Source: Candidatus Iainarchaeum sp.
GTDB lineage: Archaea > Iainarchaeota > Iainarchaeia > Iainarchaeales > VGJJ01
Direction: 5' to 3'
Assembly (NCBI GenBank): GCA_043803765.1
Contig: JAZDJQ010000014.1
Coordinates: 14,721 to 78,720, forward strand
Length of the DNA: 64,000 nucleotides
The notes beneath the pieces are model-generated. The model was not told the origin of the DNA. It saw only the letters and a program-made list of their open reading frames with translations, and ran no database searches. A program made the position numbers and the translations under genes. Positions 1,259 to 27,946 of this stretch are shown here, piece after piece; position 1 is the first letter of the stretch; the number at the start of each line of letters is the position of its first letter.

Positions 1259-1483
1259 ACAACAAAATCATTCCTTAGACTATAAAAACACGCTTTAACC
1301 AAAACACCAAAATGCACTTTATTCCTGGACAATATGCCTCGGGGGAGGGTGGAAGATAGCGGTAAACTGCCATTTGTAAGGAACAATACCGAACAGTATG
1401 TAGGAGTAAATAAAGGTTTCCGAGCCTGCGAGGGGGACATCACCATTTTGGAAAGCAAATCGATAGTTATTTTTTCAGATTGA

Positions 1484-7492: not shown

Positions 7493-9535
7493 ATGCCGGA
7501 CTCCTTGATTGAAGAACTTCCTCGCATAATGGCGTATGGAAAAAAGGAAGCTCAGCGCATCTTAGACGGACTCTCCAAGCAAAATCGGGTTAGTTTACAA
7601 ACAAATGAAATGGTTTTGCCCACGAAGGCCAAGGCCGGAATTTTCTCCCATTTTGGCCAGGCTCTACACAGTTCTACTGATGTTGAATGGTTCAACCGAA
7701 TGATTTACGGAGACAACATTCTAACGATGCAGGCTTTATTAGCCGGCGACTCCGAAACAGGGCTGCCTTCCATGCGAGGAAAAATAGACCTAATCTACAT
7801 CGACCCACCATTTGACTCCAAAGCAGATTATCGGACAAAAATTCATTTACCGCATACAGACATTGAGCAGCGTCCAACTGTCATTGAACAATTTGCTTAT
7901 TCAGACACATGGGAACATGGGACAACATCATACTTGAAAATGATGGTACCACGACTTATCCTCATGAGGGAACTACTAAGCGAGAAGGGAAGTATCTACA
8001 TTCACATTGATTGGCACGTTGGACACTATGTAAAAGTAATGATGGATGAAATATTCGGAAAAGAGAATTTTATCAACGAGATTATTTGGCAAAAAGTAAG
8101 GTCTTCAAAAGGACAAGCAAAATCGTTTGGCAATGTTCATGATTCAATTTTTGTTTATGCGAAAACAAAATCTTATTTCTTCAATAAATTGTATACCGAA
8201 CACGATCAAGAAAGACTTGATACTCATTATAATAATATCGAATTAGAAACTGGTAGGAAATATCAACTGGCAGATTTTACACAAAAAGGTCAAGGTGAAC
8301 CAAAAAAATTTTCGAATATATTACTGACACCTCCTACTGGTAAACATTGGATTTGGTCACAGGAAAGAATTAATGAGGGAATGGTAAAGGGATTAATTGT
8401 TTTTACTAAATCAGGCAAGCCAAGAGTAAAAAGATTTTTAGATGAGTCGCAAGGATCTCCAATTGAAGACATTTGGACTGATGTATTTCCAATTAACTCT
8501 CAAGCCATCGAATCTATCGGTTACCCAACACAAAAACCAGAAGGACTTCTAGAACGAATAATCAAGGCATCTTCAAACGAAGGAGATTTAGTTTGCGACT
8601 TCTTTTGTGGTTCTGGCACAACAGCTACTATCGCAGAAAAACTTGGTAGAAAATGGATTGCTTCTGATTTAGGTAAGCCAGCTTGCATGATTATGCGGAA
8701 AAGATTGATTGACCAAGATGCGAAGCCTTTTTTGTATCAGTCTATTGGAGATTATCAGAAGGAGCAGTTCGAACATTCGCAACACAAGACAATCGGAGAG
8801 CTATCCCATGTCGTGATAAATTTGTATGGGGCATTACCTTTTCCTTACGGCCAGCATCCACAAAATAATTTAGGGTATATCAAGCAGTCTAAAACCCTTG
8901 TTTTTGTCGATTCGCCTTCTAAAATGACGGGGGCTAATACTTTGAAAAGAGCGCGGGAGTTGCGTGCTTCTTTTGCAGGAGGGTGGGAGAAAGTAGTTGT
9001 TTTGGGTTGGAATTTTGTCTGGGATATTGGACAAATCGTTGAAACAATGAATGACCCAAAATTAGAGGTTTTGGTCATTCCGCCCGACCTACTTGATCGC
9101 TTGAAAACCAAGGCCAGTTATGAGCAACTAATCAAATCAGGAAAAATCCGCTTTTCCTCCCTGCAGTATTTGACCGTGAAACCCATCATTAAGAACGATT
9201 CCGATAACGATCAGGACGAGTTGATTGTTTCCCTTGACAATTATATTCTGTTATCCCCAGACGCGCTTCCACTGGACAAAGAGAACAAGGAAAAGCTAGA
9301 AAAAACAATCGAGAAAGACCCATTGAGCTTGGTAGAATATTGGAATATTGACCCCGATTACGATGGAGAAATTTTTCGCAGCAAATGGCAGGAATATCGA
9401 GAAAACAACAAAGACCTCCGAATTAAACGAACCGCCAAAATTCTCGTACCCAAAATCAAAGGGAAGCGAAAAGTATGTGTGAAAGCAGTCGATGTTTTTG
9501 GTTTTGAAAGCGCTACTGTCCAGGAGATTGATTAA
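7493..9535 (+). CDS. mod: Type III R-M DNA methyltransferase (Mod)
   Basis: IYIDPPF catalytic motif, [19 protein letters not shown] motif (beta-class order). Confidence 0.92.
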
Positions 9536-17446: not shown

Positions 17447-18736
17447 CTATCTGGGTCGCATGACTTCGAGTGCTTGCTCAGGAGTCAGTTGATCTACTTT
17501 TACGTTGAGTTTGTTCATCGCTTCAACCATCGCATTCAGCACGCTTCGTATTTGCCCATTCTCCTCCTGCATTTGTGTTAATTTATCTTTGTATTCCAGT
17601 CGCGCTTCCAATGTGAGGGGATTGTTGCATTTTTTGCAAAGAAGATTCGTGAACTCATTTAGTTCACCGCAGATATTGCACAATCGTGGTTTTAGAATAC
17701 TTTCCTCGTCCTTTTCTTTTTTCCCTAATCCATAGATTTTTCGAACGGCGTCGTGAACATCGCGCCCAGAAAGATGAATATAGGTAGCGGGCATTTCACT
17801 ACCAATTTGCCAGCCCATGACCTTGCACAATTGGGCCTCCGTTAATCGTCCAGCCAAATAAGTTGCGCGGGAGTGCCTCCAGTGATGCGGATTATAGGGT
17901 TTGTTGATACCTGCCCTCGTTGTTGTTTCGTCCAGAATTTTTCGGATTGAAGCATAGGAGAGTCTTTTTCCGCGATGTACGGGAGAAACAATCACAAACA
18001 AAGGCGCATTCTTGTCATCGCGTAGGGGGTGAATGTCTAACCATCCGCGAAGAAACGGAACACTGGACACCAAAAGGACTTGCCTCATTCCGGTTTTTCC
18101 ATCAAGCATGGCTGTGGCTTCGGTTCCATCAAATTGAATTGATTTAATTTTAGCATTACCAATCTCACCGATGCGCGCACCCGTTTCCCACAAAATAGAA
18201 ATGAGCGCTTTTTTCATGGGATGATCGGCCACTTGAATGATTTTGATGATTTCGTCCTCTGATAGCATCTCTTCTGGCAGTTTGTGCGAGTTTCCGCTTC
18301 GGATGCATTTAATCCATCGGACTTGGGACGGAAAAAAGTCGTTGTCGCCCAACAACCATTTGTAAAAGGCCTTGAGCATGCGTTTGTGCATAGTTCTTGT
18401 AGTCTCCCCCCACCCATTTCGATTCACGATTTGAGAAACAAGGTGTTCAATATCTTCTCGTGTAGCGGACTCGAAATCCTTCCCGATCATTTCAGCCAAA
18501 TTAGCCATCGTGAATAATACGCGGATTCGGCGGGCAAGACTGATGCCTCCTTCATTTTCCAAATGAATTCGATAGCGTTCAATCGTGCGTTTGTTTGTCT
18601 CGCTGATAATGTACGGTTTACCCTGCTTTCCGTGCTTCTTCTCAAAATCGCGTGGATATTTTTCTGGGAAAATTCGACTTAACAATAGCTCGTAGCGTCT
18701 TTCGTAGTTATGAAAACTCGTGGCTTCTGGCGGCAT
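17447..18736 (-). CDS. int: Tyrosine recombinase/integrase with C-terminal Zn ribbon
   Basis: ETGARIGE, DGKTG, HHWRHSR, MGW, TYIH catalytic set; CNIC..CKKC; lies next to a tRNA. Confidence 0.95.
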   Translation of the reverse strand: MPPEATSFHNYERRYELLLSRIFPEKYPRDFEKKHGKQGKPYIISETNKRTIERYRIHLENEGGISLARRIRVLFTMANLAEMIGKDFESATREDIEHLVSQIVNRNGWGETTRTMHKRMLKAFYKWLLGDNDFFPSQVRWIKCIRSGNSHKLPEEMLSEDEIIKIIQVADHPMKKALISILWETGARIGEIGNAKIKSIQFDGTEATAMLDGKTGMRQVLLVSSVPFLRGWLDIHPLRDDKNAPLFVIVSPVHRGKRLSYASIRKILDETTTRAGINKPYNPHHWRHSRATYLAGRLTEAQLCKVMGWQIGSEMPATYIHLSGRDVHDAVRKIYGLGKKEKDEESILKPRLCNICGELNEFTNLLCKKCNNPLTLEARLEYKDKLTQMQEENGQIRSVLNAMVEAMNKLNVKVDQLTPEQALEVMRPR

Positions 18737-18797
18737 ATAGGCACTCCCCGTTCGGTTGGTTTTATTCTTTACGGGGGCACTTTACTGCCATCTTCAA

Positions 18798-18871
18798 TGC
18801 CTCGGGGGAGACTTGAACTCCCGGCCTCCGGGTTATGAATCCGGCGCTCTAACCAACTGAGCTACCAAGGC
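18798..18871 (-). tRNA. tRNA-Met(CAT), probably elongator (Ile2 not excluded)
   Basis: GCCTTGGTAGCTCAGTTGGTTAGAGCGCCGGATTCATAACCCGGAGGCCGGGAGTTCAAGTCTCCCCCGAGGCA folds as a cloverleaf. Confidence 0.95.
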
Positions 18872-21368: not shown

Positions 21369-21716
21369 ATGGAACTCGTAAAATACACGCGCCGCATTAC
21401 GTTGAGCGAGGAAGAGGCCGATTTCTTCTATTCGGAGATTCTACTCGAGAAGAAGACTAAAAAAGTGGTGAATTTCTCCGTCATACAAACATATCAGCCG
21501 CATGAAACCGAGTTTTTAGTGAAAAAGCACGATTGCTCGCACGGAAACTATCACATCCACCATTTTTATCGGGGCAAAGGAACTATTATTGAGGAAACGA
21601 ATGAACCCCTAACCAACGAGTTGTTTGATCAAGCCAAACAGGACATTCTGCAGAATTGGTTTGTTTATCGTACGCAATTCTGCAACCGGGGGTTAGATCA
21701 AGAAAATAAACGATAG
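21369..21716 (+). CDS. Putative toxin (TumE/DUF6516-like)
   Basis: KKHDCSHGNYHIH motif; paired with a downstream HTH gene. Confidence 0.6.
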   Translation: MELVKYTRRITLSEEEADFFYSEILLEKKTKKVVNFSVIQTYQPHETEFLVKKHDCSHGNYHIHHFYRGKGTIIEETNEPLTNELFDQAKQDILQNWFVYRTQFCNRGLDQENKR

Positions 21717-21747
21717 AGTTATAATCTTCATGTTATACATGTGATGT

Positions 21748-22116
21748 ATGAAAGAACTTTTGACGGTCATCATCGGCGGGGGCATGGATGCGGATGACCG
21801 AGAATTGTTTACCAACCCCGAAAAAGGAATGAAACAGCCGCGAAACGTGCTGTATGTCAAATCATTCACCCAGATGGAACGCCTTCTTTCGGCCAAAAAA
21901 CTGGACTTGCTCCAATATCTTATTAAAATCAAGAAATCCAAAAAGAAAAAATCGGTTAGCATCATTGCGAACGAACTTGAACGCAAACAAGAGGCCATTT
22001 CACTCGATTTGCACAAACTCGCCGCCTTGCATGTAATTGAACTCAAACGCGAAGGGCAAAGTGTTTACGCTACCACCCAATTCGATGGGATTGAGATACA
22101 GACAGCGAAGACGTAG
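21748..22116 (+). CDS. HVO_A0114-like HTH antitoxin/regulator
   Basis: LLSAKKLDLL..SVSIIANELERKQEAISLDLHKL. Confidence 0.75.
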   Translation: MKELLTVIIGGGMDADDRELFTNPEKGMKQPRNVLYVKSFTQMERLLSAKKLDLLQYLIKIKKSKKKKSVSIIANELERKQEAISLDLHKLAALHVIELKREGQSVYATTQFDGIEIQTAKT

Positions 22117-22282
22117 CAAAAAAAATAGCCTCTGGGAGATTGAAAATCTTCCAATTCTTTCCGCACGATTGGAGGTTACCGATTCGGGAAAAACCTCTGG
22201 CTTGCCCACTTTTTCAATGGTTTTTGCAAAGCAAAAAGCCTCTGGCTTGCCCACTTTTTGCAGGCTTTTTACGTGAGTAAAA

Positions 22283-22355
22283 AGCCTCTGGCGAGAGTTG
22301 AACTCGCGACCTCCACATTACCAATGTGGCGCTCTAACCACTGAGCTACAGAGGC
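22283..22355 (-). tRNA. tRNA-Thr(GGT)
   Basis: Cloverleaf; anticodon arm CCACA-TTGGTAA-TGTGG. Confidence 0.96.
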
Positions 22356-22565: not shown

Positions 22566-23855
22566 TCATTTTTTGGGATTAGGGAGAGAGTGAGAGGTTA
22601 GTTCTTTGATGAGCGAGTCGAGTGGGGTTGTTTTCACCATTTTTTCCTCCCCGCTTTCCATGTTTCGTATTTTTACGCTGTTTTGTTTGAGTTCGTCTTC
22701 TCCTAGGAATACTACGTAGGGGAATTTTTTAGTGTTGGCATAATTCATGTTTTTTCCTATGCTTCTTCCCATGAGGTCGAGCTCGATGCGTAGTCCTTTC
22801 TCTCTTAGTTTTCCGGCTAATTGTTGTGCGTCGGGATATACTTTTCCAATGGGCAGGATGTAGGCATTCATTCTTTCTTCATCCCATTTTTCAATGAGTA
22901 TGTCCATGAGTCGGTCGACTCCAAATGATATTCCTACTGCGGGCATTTCCAATCCCCCAAGCGATTGAATGAGTTCGTCGAATCGTCCTCCTCCTCCTAC
23001 GCTCACGCGGGCACCGGCGAATACTTCAAACACGGTTCCGGTGTAGTATTCGAGTCCCCGCATGAGAGAGGGGTCGAACTTTAGGTAGGATTGTTTTTTT
23101 TGTGTGGCAATCGTGTCAAATAGTTGTTCGAGTGCAGTAACTCCCGTCAAATCCAGTTTGGCTTGGGTGAGTTCTTTCTTTATTTTGGATAATGGGCTTT
23201 CCATGTAGGCTAGGATGCTCGTTGATAGGAATTGTTTTTCTAATTCTTCTTTTACTCCTTCTAATCCTATTTTGTCTAGTTTGTCTAATATGCGCATTGC
23301 ATCTTTTGATTTCGCGGGGGGAATATCGCATAATGTGAGTAGTTCGTTGATGATGCGTCGGTCATTGATTCGGATAAAGAATTGGGTGAAACCCAGCTCT
23401 TTCATCACATCGATGGCGAATGAAATGCATTCAGCATCCGCGGCAGGATGGGTTGTTCCAATAATGTCGCAGTCCGCTTGGGTGAATTCCCTGTACCGCA
23501 TGGCTTGCGGATTATCATACCGGTATACGGTTCCCATGTTGAATGTTTTCACGGGTTTGGGTAAATCGGGGTTTCCTGCTAGTACGCGGGCGAGGCTTGT
23601 TGTGTGTTCAAACCGTAATCCTAGTTTCCTACCGGATTGGTCATCTAATAGGTATAGTTCTTTTGCTGCTTCTTCCCCTCCTCCCCCTTTGATTGTTAAT
23701 GTTTCCAAGTGTTCTAATATGGGGAATTGGACGGGTTCGAACGCATAACGGTATGCGCATTCTTGGATTGTTTTTTCAATCCATTTTTTGAGGCGTGCTT
23801 GTTTTCCAATGATATCGCGCATTCCTTTCACAGGACTCGTTGAGCGTGGAGGCAT
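22566..23855 (-). CDS. hisS: Histidine--tRNA ligase
   Basis: LRFEHT, YRYDNPQ..RYREFTQ, RGLEYYTG, GGGRFD motifs; anticodon-binding domain. Confidence 0.97.
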   Translation of the reverse strand: MPPRSTSPVKGMRDIIGKQARLKKWIEKTIQECAYRYAFEPVQFPILEHLETLTIKGGGGEEAAKELYLLDDQSGRKLGLRFEHTTSLARVLAGNPDLPKPVKTFNMGTVYRYDNPQAMRYREFTQADCDIIGTTHPAADAECISFAIDVMKELGFTQFFIRINDRRIINELLTLCDIPPAKSKDAMRILDKLDKIGLEGVKEELEKQFLSTSILAYMESPLSKIKKELTQAKLDLTGVTALEQLFDTIATQKKQSYLKFDPSLMRGLEYYTGTVFEVFAGARVSVGGGGRFDELIQSLGGLEMPAVGISFGVDRLMDILIEKWDEERMNAYILPIGKVYPDAQQLAGKLREKGLRIELDLMGRSIGKNMNYANTKKFPYVVFLGEDELKQNSVKIRNMESGEEKMVKTTPLDSLIKELTSHSLPNPKK

Positions 23856-24010: not shown

Positions 24011-24082
24011 GGCCCGCGCAGTGTGGTGGTCGCATACAAGCCTGTGGAGCTTGTGGTACGGGTTCGAATCCCGTCGTGGGCA
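24011..24082 (+). tRNA. tRNA-His(GTG) with encoded G-1 and atypical C8/G14/A73
   Basis: Acceptor GCCCGCG/CGTGGGC; anticodon arm CAAGC-CTGTGGA-GCTTG; T-arm ACGGG-TTCGAAT-CCCGT. Confidence 0.9.
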
Positions 24083-24141
24083 TAAGTTGCTGGAGATGTA
24101 GCCCCCATATCTATAAACGCCACTTCAATAAGCAATAGTTT

Positions 24142-24807
24142 ATGGGGAGAGTTGGTAGAGTAGCTCGACAAAAAAAGTCTTACATTCATCAAAAGTATCT
24201 TCCCTTTACCAAAAAATTCGCAAAAGAAATAGAGTGGAAAGGAAGAGTGACAGAAATTTTTCAACAAAACGATATTCACTTACGAGGAGTAAAACTAAAG
24301 CCAAAAAGTATATTGGTCGAATTAGGCTCTTGGAAGGAAAAACCGGGTGGACTAATGCTTGACTATTCAAATGTAATGAAAATATCGTCTCATTTTGGAT
24401 TGAAAGTTAAAGCCGAATATTCTGATCGGAATGGAAGAGCAGAGCACGGAAACTATTTTTATCGAGAAGTAGGAGATGGAATGATTGAAACCCTGAACCT
24501 CAAAGAATCGGGCGAGTTACAGGCTTTCAAGAATCCACGCGAGTATCTTGAGTTACCATCAAAAGTTCAAAAACGAAGACTGGGACGAATCCACTCAGTC
24601 GTTTTCACCGATAATAAAGGAAATCATGTTTTCACCTATCATCATTATGTAGGCCGTGAACATATGCCGCAACAATTTCTAACTCATCGCGGGTATGTTG
24701 AATTCTTTGCTCATAAGTTAGCTCCTGTTTTGGCAAAAATGCTCACTGAAAGAAAAGCACGAAAAACAGGGCCAAAATATTTGAAGTGGCTCAGCATGCA
24801 AAAATAA
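24142..24807 (+). CDS. Basic hypothetical protein
   Basis: 221-aa ORF with TATA-like element upstream; no recognised motif. Confidence 0.7.
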   Translation: MGRVGRVARQKKSYIHQKYLPFTKKFAKEIEWKGRVTEIFQQNDIHLRGVKLKPKSILVELGSWKEKPGGLMLDYSNVMKISSHFGLKVKAEYSDRNGRAEHGNYFYREVGDGMIETLNLKESGELQAFKNPREYLELPSKVQKRRLGRIHSVVFTDNKGNHVFTYHHYVGREHMPQQFLTHRGYVEFFAHKLAPVLAKMLTERKARKTGPKYLKWLSMQK

Positions 24808-24829
24808 ACGCAAAAAAAATTGAAAGTAA

Positions 24830-25060
24830 CTACTGATATTTCGCAAAATCCTCTTCATTTATTTTTGCTAATTCCAATGCGCTTTTCAGTGTGGACATTT
24901 TCAATTCTTTATGAACAGGCACTACCGTTCCAACCGTTCCCTCCGGAGTCACTTTCTTCAACACGACGTGGCTTCCACGTTGACGTGCAATGGAGAAACC
25001 AAACTTGTTGCACAGTATTTTGATGCATTCCTTTCCAGAAATGCGCTTAAGCTCGGGCAT
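24830..25060 (-). CDS. hicA: HicA toxin
   Basis: GFSIARQRGSHVVL..VVPVHKELKMSTLKS. Confidence 0.9.
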   Translation of the reverse strand: MPELKRISGKECIKILCNKFGFSIARQRGSHVVLKKVTPEGTVGTVVPVHKELKMSTLKSALELAKINEEDFAKYQ

Positions 25061-25259
25061 TTCCCGCCACCTCAAAAGTAGTAAAGACGGGTCTGGAAAC
25101 GCTTTCTAATGGAAATTCCTCCAAATACAATTCGGTGGCTTCTTTCAGATTGGCTACGGCTTCTTCAATGGTGTTGCCTTGACTGGCTGTGCCGACTTCG
25201 GGGCACTTAGCCACATACATATCTTCTTCTTTGTGAACCACGGCAGTTAGAGTGTACAT
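25047..25259 (-). CDS. hicB: HicB antitoxin
   Basis: YVAKCPEVGTASQGNTIEEAVANLKEATELYLE. Confidence 0.92.
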   Translation of the reverse strand: MYTLTAVVHKEEDMYVAKCPEVGTASQGNTIEEAVANLKEATELYLEEFPLESVSRPVFTTFEVAGNARA

Positions 25260-25378
25260 ATACACCAATAAGCAACCTCCTTTTTTTAACCTTAAGTTAT
25301 ACCCCTTTTCTGATAGTGGGCGTATTGCCTCACTAACTCCTGCCCCTCGTGGGCACTTGGAAACGCTACGGATGATAG

Positions 25379-26386
25379 TCACAGGAAAATATTCCAATAG
25401 TTTTCAGTAAACTCTTTGGTAAGGAATGCGACGAGTTTTTCATAGGATTTGGGTGCTGATTTGAATAACTCGGCTTTATCGGCTTCCTGCAAGGTATCAA
25501 TGTATATTGACCGGTTTTTTTGGCGAATAATGGTGGGGGGATACTTGTTTTTCAAAAGAATGTAGTTGAATAGCATTCTCCCCGTTCTTCCATTCCCGTC
25601 CATGAACGGATGAATTTTTTCAAATTTGTGGTGGAGGAGGGTAGCTAAAACGAACGGGTGAAGTTTATTTTTGTTTTCCTGATACCACTCCAACAAGAGA
25701 TTCATGTCAGTCTTAACAAAGGGTGCGGGGGTTGATTTGAAATTAGCTCTTGTTACACGCACATCGTGTGCTCGATACCCTGTACGCGAATCAATATTTT
25801 TTAAGAGCCCTGAGTGAATCCTCACGATAAGATCGTGATTTAGCTCTTCAGTAGAATCCTTCATTTTTAGAAAAACTTTTTCGGTATTCTGCAGGTCGTA
25901 AATCTCTCGCAGACTCTTGTTTTTGGGAGTCAACCCTTCTTCCAATAGGTTTCGTGCCTCCGCCAGCGTGATCGTGTTACCTTCTATAGCCGCGGTGTTG
26001 AACGAGAACTCCACAATAAAGTTCTTCCAAACTTCTTCTTTGGTCAACGAATCCAGTTTTTCAAAATCGGAATGAAAATGAAGACGGCATGCTTCAATAT
26101 CCTCCAGTTTTTCCTTCAAGTAGGGGTCGTGCTTTAATTTGAGGGACTTAGCCTTCTCCGTGAATCGGTTGGACTCCAAGAAGTTTTGGATGGTACGATG
26201 GGATTTGCGAATTTTCGCCTGTTGAGCAGGCAAATGTTCGAGTGCCTCTTTCGCTTCCGTAAGCGAAGTCCCTAAGTACGCGACATCCTTGACCATCAGC
26301 TTAGAGCCTTTTCTCTCTGAAACACGCAAGTAATAGTAAAACTTCCCGCCCACCTTTTTCTTGTAGAGATAAACCATACCAATCAA
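25379..26386 (-). CDS. fic: Fic-domain protein
   Basis: HPFMDGNGRTGR Fic motif; TAAIEGN inhibitory-helix-like motif. Confidence 0.93.
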   Translation of the reverse strand: MIGMVYLYKKKVGGKFYYYLRVSERKGSKLMVKDVAYLGTSLTEAKEALEHLPAQQAKIRKSHRTIQNFLESNRFTEKAKSLKLKHDPYLKEKLEDIEACRLHFHSDFEKLDSLTKEEVWKNFIVEFSFNTAAIEGNTITLAEARNLLEEGLTPKNKSLREIYDLQNTEKVFLKMKDSTEELNHDLIVRIHSGLLKNIDSRTGYRAHDVRVTRANFKSTPAPFVKTDMNLLLEWYQENKNKLHPFVLATLLHHKFEKIHPFMDGNGRTGRMLFNYILLKNKYPPTIIRQKNRSIYIDTLQEADKAELFKSAPKSYEKLVAFLTKEFTENYWNIFL

Positions 26387-26408
26387 AGAGCATTAGCCAA
26401 TATAAACA

Positions 26409-26445
26409 TACCCTTTACAACATTAATTTTATAATGTAAAGGGTA
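26409..26445. promoter_or_regulatory. Inverted repeat TACCCTTTACA-N15-TGTAAAGGGTA upstream of fic
   Basis: Perfect 11-bp arms adjacent to the TATA at ~26399-26406. Confidence 0.6.
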
Positions 26446-26673
26446 AGTTATTTGAGTTAGAAGAAGATATTAACCCCTCGGCGTCATTTCTGTCATAAAG
26501 GGTTTGCGGGCTTCGCCCCCAGCGCTTTTAGTCCCTCGTGGGCACTTTCCTTAGGTGATTGGTTCAAAATCCCTTCGAGGAGAAAAATAGGATTAGAATG
26601 GTTTTTGCCCCTAGAGGGTAGTCTGGACAGAAAAAGCACTTTGTAAATCTTCACGGCGGAACAGTTGGGTTGA

Positions 26674-26694
26674 CCTTTTATTTAAAATAAAAGG
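26674..26694. promoter_or_regulatory. Palindrome CCTTTTATTT-A-AAATAAAAGG containing a TATA box
   Basis: Perfect 10-bp arms immediately upstream of the LAGLIDADG start. Confidence 0.6.
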
Positions 26695-26703
26695 GACTCA
26701 TGC

Positions 26704-27753
26704 ATGTCGAGGCTATTATTGGATAAAGAAAATCGCAAGCTCCTTTTTGACATTCTAAAAAGGCATTACCGGATTTTGACAGTAAGACAATTAGCCGAAA
26801 AAATGGGTTTTAGTTATCAAACACTTAAAACGTGGCAAATGGGAAAATACCTTGTTCCGGCGAGAGCGATACCAAAGCATATTTTGAAAGCAATAAAAAT
26901 AGATGAAATCAAAGCGGCAGATTGGGGAAAATTAAAGATACAAGAGATGCAAAAAAAAGACCTGTTGTTTCTCCGGCGAGCAAAGATGCAGAAGAAAATA
27001 AAATTACTGCAGAATCACGCATATTCGTTCATGAACAGAAAGATAAAATTAGATAATGAAACTGTTTTGTTCAGTCATCATGATCTTCGAAAGGGAGTCA
27101 CGCTTCCTGTAGAAATGACTCCTGAACTAGCCGAAGAGATAGGAATGCATATTGGAGACGGCACGCTACCAGTCAAGAAATATAGTTATTCTCTTCGAGG
27201 GGATATCTTGGAGGAGGAGTATTATACAAATCATGTTCAACCGTTATATAAGAAAGTATTTGGGATCAAAACGCGATTATTGAAACGACCTCCTATTTGT
27301 GGGATAGAATTTGATTCCAAGGCCATTTACACATTCAAGAGTAGGGTGCTGGGATTGACAATTGGGGAGAAAAAAGAATGTGTTTCTGTTCCGCGGGCGA
27401 TTATGGATTCGGATAATCCAGATGTATACAAAGCATTTCTCCGTGGAATCGTTGATACGGATGGTTGTTTCTATATGCCATCCACTAAACAGTATCCGCG
27501 CGTGGATATCTGTATCCTCTCAAGGCCATTAATCAGGGATATGGATTTGATTCTCAAACGATTGGGATTTATGCCTTCCACCAGTTTCAAGTTTTGTACC
27601 ATACGACTAAATGGGACGGTGCAGTTTCATAAGTGGATGAATGAAATCGGGTCAAAGAACCCAAAGCACTTAAAAAGGATTCACCAGATAAAATCTCTCA
27701 TCCCATGGAAGGAAATCGTCAAAACAATTGAGAATTCTGCCCGTGTAGTGTAA
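26704..27753 (+). CDS. Free-standing LAGLIDADG homing endonuclease with N-terminal HTH
   Basis: LAEEIGMHIGDG and AFLRGIVDTDG motifs; TVRQLAEKMGFSYQTLKTW HTH; no intein splicing motifs. Confidence 0.9.
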   Translation: MSRLLLDKENRKLLFDILKRHYRILTVRQLAEKMGFSYQTLKTWQMGKYLVPARAIPKHILKAIKIDEIKAADWGKLKIQEMQKKDLLFLRRAKMQKKIKLLQNHAYSFMNRKIKLDNETVLFSHHDLRKGVTLPVEMTPELAEEIGMHIGDGTLPVKKYSYSLRGDILEEEYYTNHVQPLYKKVFGIKTRLLKRPPICGIEFDSKAIYTFKSRVLGLTIGEKKECVSVPRAIMDSDNPDVYKAFLRGIVDTDGCFYMPSTKQYPRVDICILSRPLIRDMDLILKRLGFMPSTSFKFCTIRLNGTVQFHKWMNEIGSKNPKHLKRIHQIKSLIPWKEIVKTIENSARVV

Positions 27754-27812
27754 TCTGGATATCACACGGGTTTGCGGAACCCGTAATCTGGGTTCAAATC
27801 CCAGCACGGGTG
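27739..27812 (+). tRNA. tRNA-Arg(GCG)
   Basis: Cloverleaf; anticodon arm CGGGT-TTGCGGA-ACCCG; first 15 nt overlap the endonuclease ORF. Confidence 0.93.
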
Positions 27813-27946
27813 CTTAGGGGGCTTCGGCCCCCATTTTTCTTTTGACTGGGCGTCTACTTTTCTTTTTCTCAAAAAGAAAAGGAGTGCGTTCCCGAATCCA
27901 AGCAGGGGTGCTTTTGACAAAAAAACGGTTGGATTTGCGCGTTCGT

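Follow-up and report, generated by a model that had tools for sequence, protein, structure and literature searches.

Displaced tRNA-His 3' ends bounding recombinase-less gene units in a Candidatus Iainarchaeum genome: probable scars of successive tyrosine-integrase insertions

The DNA considered here, hereafter the window, comprises 64,000 nt of contig JAZDJQ010000014.1 from a Candidatus Iainarchaeum genome (GCA_043803765.1; referred to as G000, and its relatives as G001, G002 and so on). Behind the tRNA-His(GTG) gene of this window, two further copies of the 3' end of the tRNA bound two units of about 1.2 kb, the first carrying an orphan open reading frame (ORF) with hicA and hicB and the second a fic gene, and neither unit encodes a recombinase. 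It is suggested that these copies are attachment-site (att) scars of successive insertions by a tyrosine integrase, of which integrase-less passengers remain; a probability of roughly two in three is placed on this reading. It is preferred because the tRNA is intact, the 3' fragments lie on the same strand, the insert is polymorphic among relatives, the copies carry a foreign allele, the cargo is of a mobile type and the core of the repeat has its counterpart at tRNA-Met, where an integrase is present. The genome measures 1.02 Mb and is 93% complete, which bears on the enzymes not found in it.

The tRNA-His gene occupies 24012..24082 on the forward strand (ARAGORN; 55.1 bits with Rfam, in which tRNA was the only family matched in the window and in the hairpin-module loci described below). 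Its last 13 nt, CCCGTCGTGGGCA (24070-24082, +, repeat family D2), form the tRNA-proximal att copy, and its last nine bases, TCGTGGGCA, occur at 24074, 25347 and 26536, giving three copies within 2.5 kb that all lie on the forward strand. Taken with the trailer, copy 2 of the 3' end reads CCCCTCGTGGGCACTT (25343..25358, +) and copy 3 reads CCCTCGTGGGCACTT (26533..26547, +); the latter 15-mer is exact at both 25344 and 26533, in agreement with the original prediction, which had described a tRNA-derived core at 25347 and 26536 with 15 shared base pairs. Within the window TCGTGGGCA is matched four times against 0.40 expected, and 0/100 shuffles reach that count; the fourth match, at 7617 on the reverse strand, has unrelated surroundings. 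Genome-wide the same nonamer is at background, with 8 matches compared to 6 for the reversed control, and 3/8 of these matches are the same-strand cluster at tRNA-His. The core spans the tRNA from the 3' strand of the T-stem to the discriminator base. Given the window and shuffle counts, the exact pair of 15-mers and the presence of the same 15-mer in G004, 2179 bp behind its own tRNA-His, a chance origin of the copies is excluded.

Unit 1 (24083..25342, ~1.26 kb) holds the orphan ORF of 221 codons (24142-24807, +), hicA (24830-25075, -; Pfam HicA 2e-14) and hicB (25047-25262, -; a HicB-like match below the cut-off), and unit 2 (25359..26532, ~1.17 kb) holds fic (25379-26386, -; Pfam Fic 2e-21), the product of which matches the candidate defence families PDC-S04 (1.7e-36) and SoFic (5.3e-28) in PADLOC. 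The division of the region into two such units had been noted beforehand, as had the lack of a recombinase in either, and both points are upheld: the gene content is as described, and profile and tblastn searches of the units for a recombinase were empty. The genes of unit 1 lie on both strands, with hicBA and fic directed toward tRNA-His; hicBA has 81 nt and fic 147 nt of upstream DNA of its own, and a palindrome (26405-26449, inverted repeat I2) lies ahead of fic. The GC content is 0.38-0.43 in the units and 0.44-0.47 in the flanks. For the orphan ORF, no relative was found in genome contigs, a search of 5.8 billion proteins returned only the ORF itself, and there was no usable atlas match; a similarity to the C-terminus of an integrase (52 residues, 25% identity, pairwise E 6e-4, tblastn E 0.047) was not counted, as the zinc-ribbon cysteines are missing.

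The histidyl-tRNA synthetase (HisRS) gene (22566..23855, -; Pfam tRNA-synt_His 6.3e-50) forms the conserved left anchor of the locus and tRNA-Arg(GCG) (27739..27813, +) the conserved right anchor. Used as a locus finder, HisRS was found in 38/41 related genomes, and the neighbouring DNA was compared for 14 genomes of the same genus (HisRS 54-69% identical), 12 of which have both tRNA-His and tRNA-Arg(GCG) on the compared stretch. In seven of these 12 the two tRNAs are only 40-141 bp apart; in the other five the spacer measures 827, 1152, 1441, 1441 and 3917 bp, against 3656 bp in G000, and its cargo is unrelated and includes a phosphoesterase-like gene as well as genes for membrane proteins and secreted proteins. 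The interval between tRNA-His and tRNA-Arg is therefore an insertion hot spot, and the variation between relatives at these junctions that had been named beforehand as a test was observed. In G000 the spacer also contains a segment of 1.19 kb (26548..27738, +) which is not bounded by a His copy, carries an ORF with a helix-turn-helix (HTH) and a LAGLIDADG domain (26704-27753; Pfam LAGLIDADG_3 7.3e-06 and a PHROG transcriptional regulator match) and is not present in the seven relatives with short spacers; this segment is a third insertion.

The sequence of the copies points to an origin outside the resident genome. The tRNA-His of G000 ends in CCCGTCGTGGGCA, with t as the next base, whereas the copies have CCC(C)TCGTGGGCAC and then TT; that is, CCCCT...GGGCAC-TT in the copies stands against CCCGT...GGGCA-t in the resident gene, and both the allele and the trailer are those of another species. 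Copy 2 agrees with the allele of G001, G003 and G005 and not with the tRNA-His of G000, and copy 3 is identical at 17/17 positions to the end of the G005 tRNA-His with its trailer. Further tRNA-His 3' ends were looked for among 41 genomes and none was found outside G000 and G004; CCTTCGTGGGCA-type matches in five relatives have unrelated flanks and were attributed to chance. In metagenome contigs, the exact 26-nt stretch across copy 3 and its right flank gave 0 matches and a Fic query gave no relative. Among relatives, the DNA of hicBA is 80% identical in G017 and 68% in G029, where it constitutes a 562-bp unit bounded by tRNA-Glu and an 18-bp copy of the tRNA-Glu end, and fic has homologs with 72% DNA identity in G006, G004 and G001, that of G006 lying behind tRNA-Ser(GCT) with a partial copy of the end of this tRNA 1253 nt downstream. 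The G029 hicBA and the G006 fic are similar to the His units in gene orientation and in the distance from the gene start to the distal copy.

Copies of tRNA 3' ends also lie downstream of other tRNAs of this genome. When one 3'-end 10-mer was taken from each of 46 tRNAs and sought on the same strand within 30 kb downstream, 17 occurrences were found, compared to 1, 1 and 0 at three control placements (~1 expected). Such copies are a feature of the whole genome, and neither of the outcomes that the original prediction had named as refuting it was seen. Arrays on the kilobase scale follow tRNA-His, tRNA-Met and tRNA-Tyr, with two, three and five downstream copies respectively, and single units lie behind tRNA-Phe, tRNA-Cys and tRNA-Ile. 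Of these, the tRNA-Met array supplies a candidate enzyme family: tRNA-Met(CAT) (18798-18871, -) stands at the head of the integrase-bearing array (17447..18871), adjoined by a tyrosine integrase (17447-18736, -), and a 13-bp copy of the tRNA-Met 3' end, CTCCCCCGAGGCA (1335..1347, -), closes an integrase-bearing element of 17.45 kb, past which lie two more tRNA-Met copies. The array as a whole reads as a conventional tandem of mobile elements. The core at tRNA-Met covers the same tRNA positions as the core at tRNA-His, from the 3' strand of the T-stem to the discriminator.

A search of the six-frame translation of G000 with the PF00589 profile identified three tyrosine recombinases: XerA (NF040815 272.6, cut-off 220), the window integrase at tRNA-Met, and a paralog on contig C17 that is 32% identical to the window integrase, the latter two both having a C-terminal zinc ribbon. 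Homologs of the window-integrase family in relatives are tRNA-adjacent in 11/23 loci (Asn, Gly, Tyr, Asp, Cys, Glu and Ser), and two of them, in G016 and G001, lie directly after tRNA-Tyr. The window integrase has a 91%-identical copy in one other record and an 86% nucleotide-identical copy on G004:C9, and the C17 integrase has a 92%-identical copy in G004, whose HisRS is only 63% identical. Because both integrases exceed 90% protein identity in a genome with a HisRS identity of 63%, the species concerned share a mobile gene pool. The C17 integrase (C17:13581-14936) heads an element (G000:C17:13489-20244) with an ArdC/IrrE-like gene and an Endonuc_Holl pair, which borders host genes (T2SSF-like, PAC2) and not a tRNA. 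A 10-mer 83 nt upstream of this integrase, TCATGGGCAC, was considered as a tRNA-His-like core and rejected: the genome would be expected to hold about four 10-mers of this kind, conservation is missing at the homologous position in G004, and the junction borders protein-coding host genes.

From these observations we infer the acting enzyme, the order of the insertions and any present mobility of the His units. Mobile DNA would have entered twice in succession by site-specific recombination at the 3' end of tRNA-His, and each insertion would have rebuilt the tRNA while moving the earlier junction downstream. Judged by the base that follows GGGCA at the three junctions, the fic unit probably entered first and the unit with the orphan ORF and hicBA second, at the rebuilt tRNA-His, which would place the newest unit proximal to the tRNA. 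The enzyme was most likely a zinc-ribbon tyrosine integrase such as those at tRNA-Met and on C17, which would have been provided in trans or, alternatively, have disappeared from the units. Four observations weigh against this account. First, the block of identity between the copies and the resident tRNA-His is short (12/13). Second, no conserved arms beside the core are common to the His units, unlike those at tRNA-Met and tRNA-Tyr. Third, when 15 integrases were compared by tblastn to all 12 integrase-less kilobase-scale units of G000, the best match had an E of 0.047, and simple decay should leave some integrase fragments in the units. Fourth, no integrase was found beside tRNA-His in any genome searched, nor was an element found that could have been the parent of the His units.

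The arrays at tRNA-Tyr are where an integron-like reading is best considered. The array of G000 (G000:C12:125774-135874, -; related arrays in G002, G004, G016 and G001) has five downstream copies that delimit units of 0.8-3.6 kb with genes for Fic, a UDG-like protein, TauE, ABM and a carbamoyltransferase. The sites are 70-100 bp long and 85-95% conserved between species. Each consists, in turn, of a degenerate tRNA 3'-half copy of some 40 nt, perfect over its last 17-20 nt, a 30-33-nt spacer, of which there are three sequence classes, and the core in inverted form, GTCCCG(C/A)CG. Among 18 aligned sites, drawn from five species, 16-18 retain a 6-bp pairing between the core and its inverted copy; the core being invariant, this pairing shows no covariation. 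The four G000 sites that have the inverted arm rank, by fold, within the top 0.4-3.3% of random windows. A search behind tRNA genes in general for the acceptor strand in inverted form found none. A 13-mer from the end of tRNA-Tyr occurs two to six times, on one strand only, in 7/17 genomes of the genus, which are those with arrays, once in 8/17 and not at all in 2/17, with a reversed control giving 0 in all; G002 has eight tRNA-Tyr sites in 11 kb, delimiting units of 0.6-3.1 kb with no integrase in the array. In viral contigs the tRNA-Tyr site gave 0 matches.

The cargo of the tRNA-Tyr arrays includes HicAB (several times), MazF, ParE, UPF0175, an AAA_14/DUF4143 ATPase, NUDIX, SurE and glycosyltransferase genes. 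Between species, the cassettes, of 0.6-3 kb, are 77-91% identical, compared to 65-71% for the core DNA upstream of tRNA-Tyr; their positions within the arrays differ between species while their orientation is kept, and blocks of homology begin at the sites, as with a 1511-nt block, 88% identical, which in G000 and G016 alike begins at a site. Two readings fit these units: they may be active cassettes mobilised in trans, or they may be toxin-antitoxin survivors of decayed elements. The complete arms on both sides of even the 0.6-kb units and the lack of integrase remnants lean toward active cassettes without proving them. The analogy with integrons fits better at tRNA-Tyr than at tRNA-His.

This leads to two wider readings of the His locus. 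In the first, which is a tentative and rather doubtful one, the genus would maintain an economy of recombinase-less cassettes with tRNA-derived sites, traded and stacked by zinc-ribbon integrases encoded elsewhere; this would be a functional analogue of the integron in which the tRNA 3' end takes the part of attI, and the two His islets would be two cassettes. In the second, which is unlikely, there would be a dedicated integron-like system, in which a recombinase acting in trans captures, stacks and exchanges small cassettes at tRNA 3' ends, the site possibly being folded single-stranded DNA (ssDNA). This last proposal draws on the finding that 12/13 kilobase-scale units of G000 are without trace of an integrase, on the long, conserved tRNA-Tyr sites with their inverted core copy and strong folds, on the exchange and reshuffling of cassettes with kept orientation in arrays that recur across the genus (in G002, eight sites without an integrase), on the abundance of toxin-antitoxin genes in the cargo, and on the like size and geometry of the hicBA unit at tRNA-Glu and the fic unit at tRNA-Ser. 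Several of these points are equally met by other explanations: the inverted repeat at tRNA-Tyr shows no covariation and could as well serve the binding of a protein to duplex DNA, ordinary tandem insertions of related elements would be expected to have conserved arms too, and toxin-antitoxin genes would be the last to survive in elements that decay.

Further evidence against a dedicated system comes from the His junctions themselves. The attC sites of integrons are imperfect palindromes at the ends of cassettes that fold as single strands, and the original prediction had proposed attC-like folded sites at these junctions, naming a hairpin before each copy and a flanking motif, ACCCCT..TTTCTG, in common to both. 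The hairpins do exist; however, when the 60-nt left flank of each copy was folded as DNA and compared to 3000 random windows of G000, the fold left of copy 2 (-6.6 kcal/mol) was matched or beaten by 13% of the windows and that left of copy 3 (-4.7 kcal/mol) by 33%, and folds that take in the core and the next 60 nt are also ordinary (15% and 23% of random windows, respectively). The shared motif did not withstand comparison either: in local alignments of the copy flanks, the score observed for the left flanks of copies 2 and 3 was reached by 99/300 shuffles. With folds and flanks at background, and with no conserved arm, the attC-like character of the junctions is not sustained. Nor was a recombinase of the integron type found, the scores against the integron-integrase model TIGR02249 being 213.8 (XerA), 44.4 and 45.7 with a cut-off of 265, such that none of the three tyrosine recombinases of G000 passes. 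What survives of the integron-like system first envisaged is the part concerning inserted units without a recombinase, anchored at a tRNA 3' end; the attC-like mechanism does not.

Insertion by a tyrosine integrase, the preferred reading, must also be set against replacement of the whole island by homologous recombination between the tRNA anchors, in which case the His copies would be pieces of a donor's tRNA-His carried over. The allele and trailer of another species in the copies are as this would predict, conserved tRNA genes frame the locus in all 12 relatives that have both tRNAs, and tRNA-Arg(GCG) is itself an odd allele, behind which lies a displaced copy of the alternative type. Replacement is nevertheless improbable for two reasons: first, it leaves unexplained why the copies start at the same tRNA position, why they are direct fragments on the same strand and why they bound each unit. 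Second, it accounts neither for the 17-to-1 downstream excess of tRNA 3'-end copies nor for the integrases at such junctions. At the right anchor, the free-standing HTH and LAGLIDADG ORF covers the first 15 nt of tRNA-Arg(GCG), the G000 allele of this tRNA differs from that of most relatives and resembles the tRNA-Arg(CCG) of the same genome, and the displaced 3' end of the other tRNA-Arg allele type lies 81 nt downstream. The LAGLIDADG ORF and the odd allele could together represent a replacement of the tRNA gene linked to a homing endonuclease.

A different origin for the His copies would be hairpin mini-inserts, with the genes having landed between them later. Short inserts of this kind are common in the genome: for 13/46 tRNAs the 3' end recurs in the first 300 nt downstream of the gene (control 0/46), usually behind a conserved hairpin. 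After the tRNAs, the module follows the order of a T-run, a hairpin (CCCCGGGG-T5..A5-GGCCGG with a recurrent G-G mismatch), GGTTCYGAAT and the 3'-end copy, and most copies of this hairpin type start in the T-loop (AATCC...), behind the conserved hairpin and GGTTCYGAAT. Examples lie at G000:C1:48830-48975, C18:92891-93085 and C4:39074-39260 and, in the window, at 27814..27911 (+), where a short hairpin module after tRNA-Arg(GCG) terminates in AATCCAAGCAGGGGTGC (27895-27911), a degenerate version of the 3' end of tRNA-Arg. The same architecture is found in five other species of the genus, and at the orthologous tRNA-Leu(CAA) of G000 and G006 each copy has the acceptor sequence of its own species. 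The most distal tRNA-Met copy in G004 is of the hairpin type, and the hairpin left of His copy 3 resembles that after tRNA-Arg (family D12), both of which would suit such an origin for the His copies. It is very improbable all the same: the His copies start in the 3' strand of the T-stem, as do the integrase-type copies at tRNA-Met, and the family hairpin is missing from their flanks.

Several other features were seen at tRNA ends and among hairpin repeats. The hairpin unit of these modules, about 47 bp long with the consensus AAAGGCCGAAGCGAAGCAACTTTTCCCCGGGGTTTTTACGAAGTAA, also occurs in tandem in intergenic DNA, with some arrays away from tRNAs (G000:C18:54731-55004, 5.8 copies; C6:12.4 kb; C11:56.2 kb); its interpretation as a REP/RAYT system was rejected, the sole Y1 transposase locus being without that hairpin. 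At the 5' side, for 5/46 tRNAs the 5' end recurs in the last 300 nt upstream of the gene (control 0/46), and a module of 70-93 nt precedes five tRNAs, namely Arg-TCT, Arg-TCG, Arg-CCG, Ser-GCT and Ser-TGA (G000:C7:3062-3155, -; C9:10795-10883; C18:91611-91701; C18:15856-15926; C7:19236-19307, -). The Arg-type module consists of a copy of the first 10-15 nt of the tRNA, a stem-TTTCG-stem hairpin, CACCGA.GGACTA and a second hairpin, the loop of which is TATA-box-like and lies about 27 nt ahead of the tRNA; in relatives, an Arg-type module is found directly after tRNA-His. In the window, three short copies of the 3' end of tRNA-Thr(GGT) (22283-22355) lie behind that gene (22130..22355, -). Just downstream of them comes a DUF7718 and HVO_A0114 gene pair (21369-22116), possibly a further small unit, of two genes, placed at the end of a tRNA.

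The remaining alternative, that an enzyme of another class (a Y1 transposase of the HUH type, a casposase or a serine recombinase) produced the repeats, is hardly credible, chance having been ruled out above. The genome does contain one Y1_Tnp gene (C4:232-591), in an IS-like locus with hairpins of its own; however, these hairpins differ from the His junctions, the Y1 transposase family is not known to make a target duplication, and the His units are bounded by direct repeats without significant hairpins, while searches of G000 found neither Cas1 nor a serine recombinase, and no terminal inverted repeats were found at the ends of the His units. The Y1 locus (IS200/IS605-type, G000:C4:1-930) lies beside tRNA-Arg(CCT).

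A 1-Mb archaeal genome of the symbiont type holds several stacks of tiny, toxin-antitoxin-rich, recombinase-less units behind its tRNAs, and at tRNA-Tyr the exchange of units between species outpaces the divergence of the core genome. An earlier description for this lineage was not found in a literature search of limited coverage. If a recombinase does act on these units in trans, they would represent a second, independent route to integron-like gene capture, in which the landing pads are the most conserved sequences of the genome, and the flexible gene pool of very small genomes would be explained. Both the sites and the two integrases are compact and clearly delimited, and would lend themselves directly to testing in vitro.

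Comparison with known systems places the His locus closest to tRNA-associated islands. Casposons have a Cas1 casposase and terminal inverted repeats with a target duplication, whereas no terminal inverted repeats were found at the His units and no Cas1 in the genome. Elements of the IS200/IS605 type have subterminal hairpins that TnpA reads, whereas the His units are bounded by direct repeats and have no significant hairpins. Integrative mobile elements exploiting Xer (IMEX), for example CTX phage, are recombinase-less and inserted in tandem at dif by the Xer proteins of the host, some of them through a folded single-strand site. The His units resemble them as recombinase-less units stacked at one chromosomal site, but this site is a tRNA end and not dif, and nothing ties the XerA that is present to the His junctions. 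In chromosomal integrons, small cassettes without a recombinase and with one site each are stacked next to an IntI-type integrase and exchanged between species; they abound in toxin-antitoxin genes, and are promoterless, co-oriented, single-gene cassettes read from a common promoter. The tRNA-Tyr arrays share with them small, recombinase-less, toxin-antitoxin-rich cassettes that are exchanged between species; in contrast, IntI, an attI/Pc platform and an attC-type fold at the His junctions are lacking, the genes lie on both strands with upstream regions of their own, and the primary site is the end of a tRNA gene.

Closer parallels are found among elements that use tRNA genes. The tycheposons of Prochlorococcus, as presented in the preprint 10.1101/2020.12.28.424599, share a streamlined genome, a few tRNAs that seed islands, successive integrations, scattered partial tRNAs and a cargo of adaptive or defence genes; they differ in having their own integrase and in leaving remnants with fragmented integrases, none being detectable in the units of G000. 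Elements flanked by att sites without an integrase, the cis-mobilizable elements (CIMEs), are known in bacteria and, as described in PMC6323972, keep attL and attR, lack genes for integration and transfer and occur in tandem with or near integrase-bearing elements, as the His units do. The CIMEs described there are deletion derivatives of bacterial conjugative elements and are mobilised through accretion with an integrase-bearing element at one att site, whereas the His units are archaeal and have neither conjugation genes nor integrase remnants, and tRNA-Tyr, unlike CIMEs, has many tiny units with complete, conserved sites. In tRNA islands, a regenerated tRNA and a displaced fragment mark the two ends, according to PMC4383910, and the re-use of one site gives rise to arrays, according to PMC6563490, on archaeal integrated elements, and to the preprint 10.1101/2020.12.28.424599. 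The Islander survey counts tandems only if every member has an integrase, and reports four arrays of at least three among 3919 islands (PMC4383910), against arrays of two, three and five downstream copies in the single 1-Mb genome of G000. Against the tyrosine-integrase islands of tRNA genes, the His units are distinguished by their size of 1.2 kb, their one to three genes, the lack of an integrase and an identity block of 13-15 bp. They share with these islands the intact tRNA, the same-strand 3' fragment, the re-use of the site, the mobile cargo and the core in the T-stem and acceptor (PMC4383910, PMC6563490), as well as the absence of the insert from the same site in relatives (7/12). Taken alone, the His locus adds one more case to a known kind, an ordinary-looking insertion scar, and the habit to which it belongs is unusually developed in this genus.

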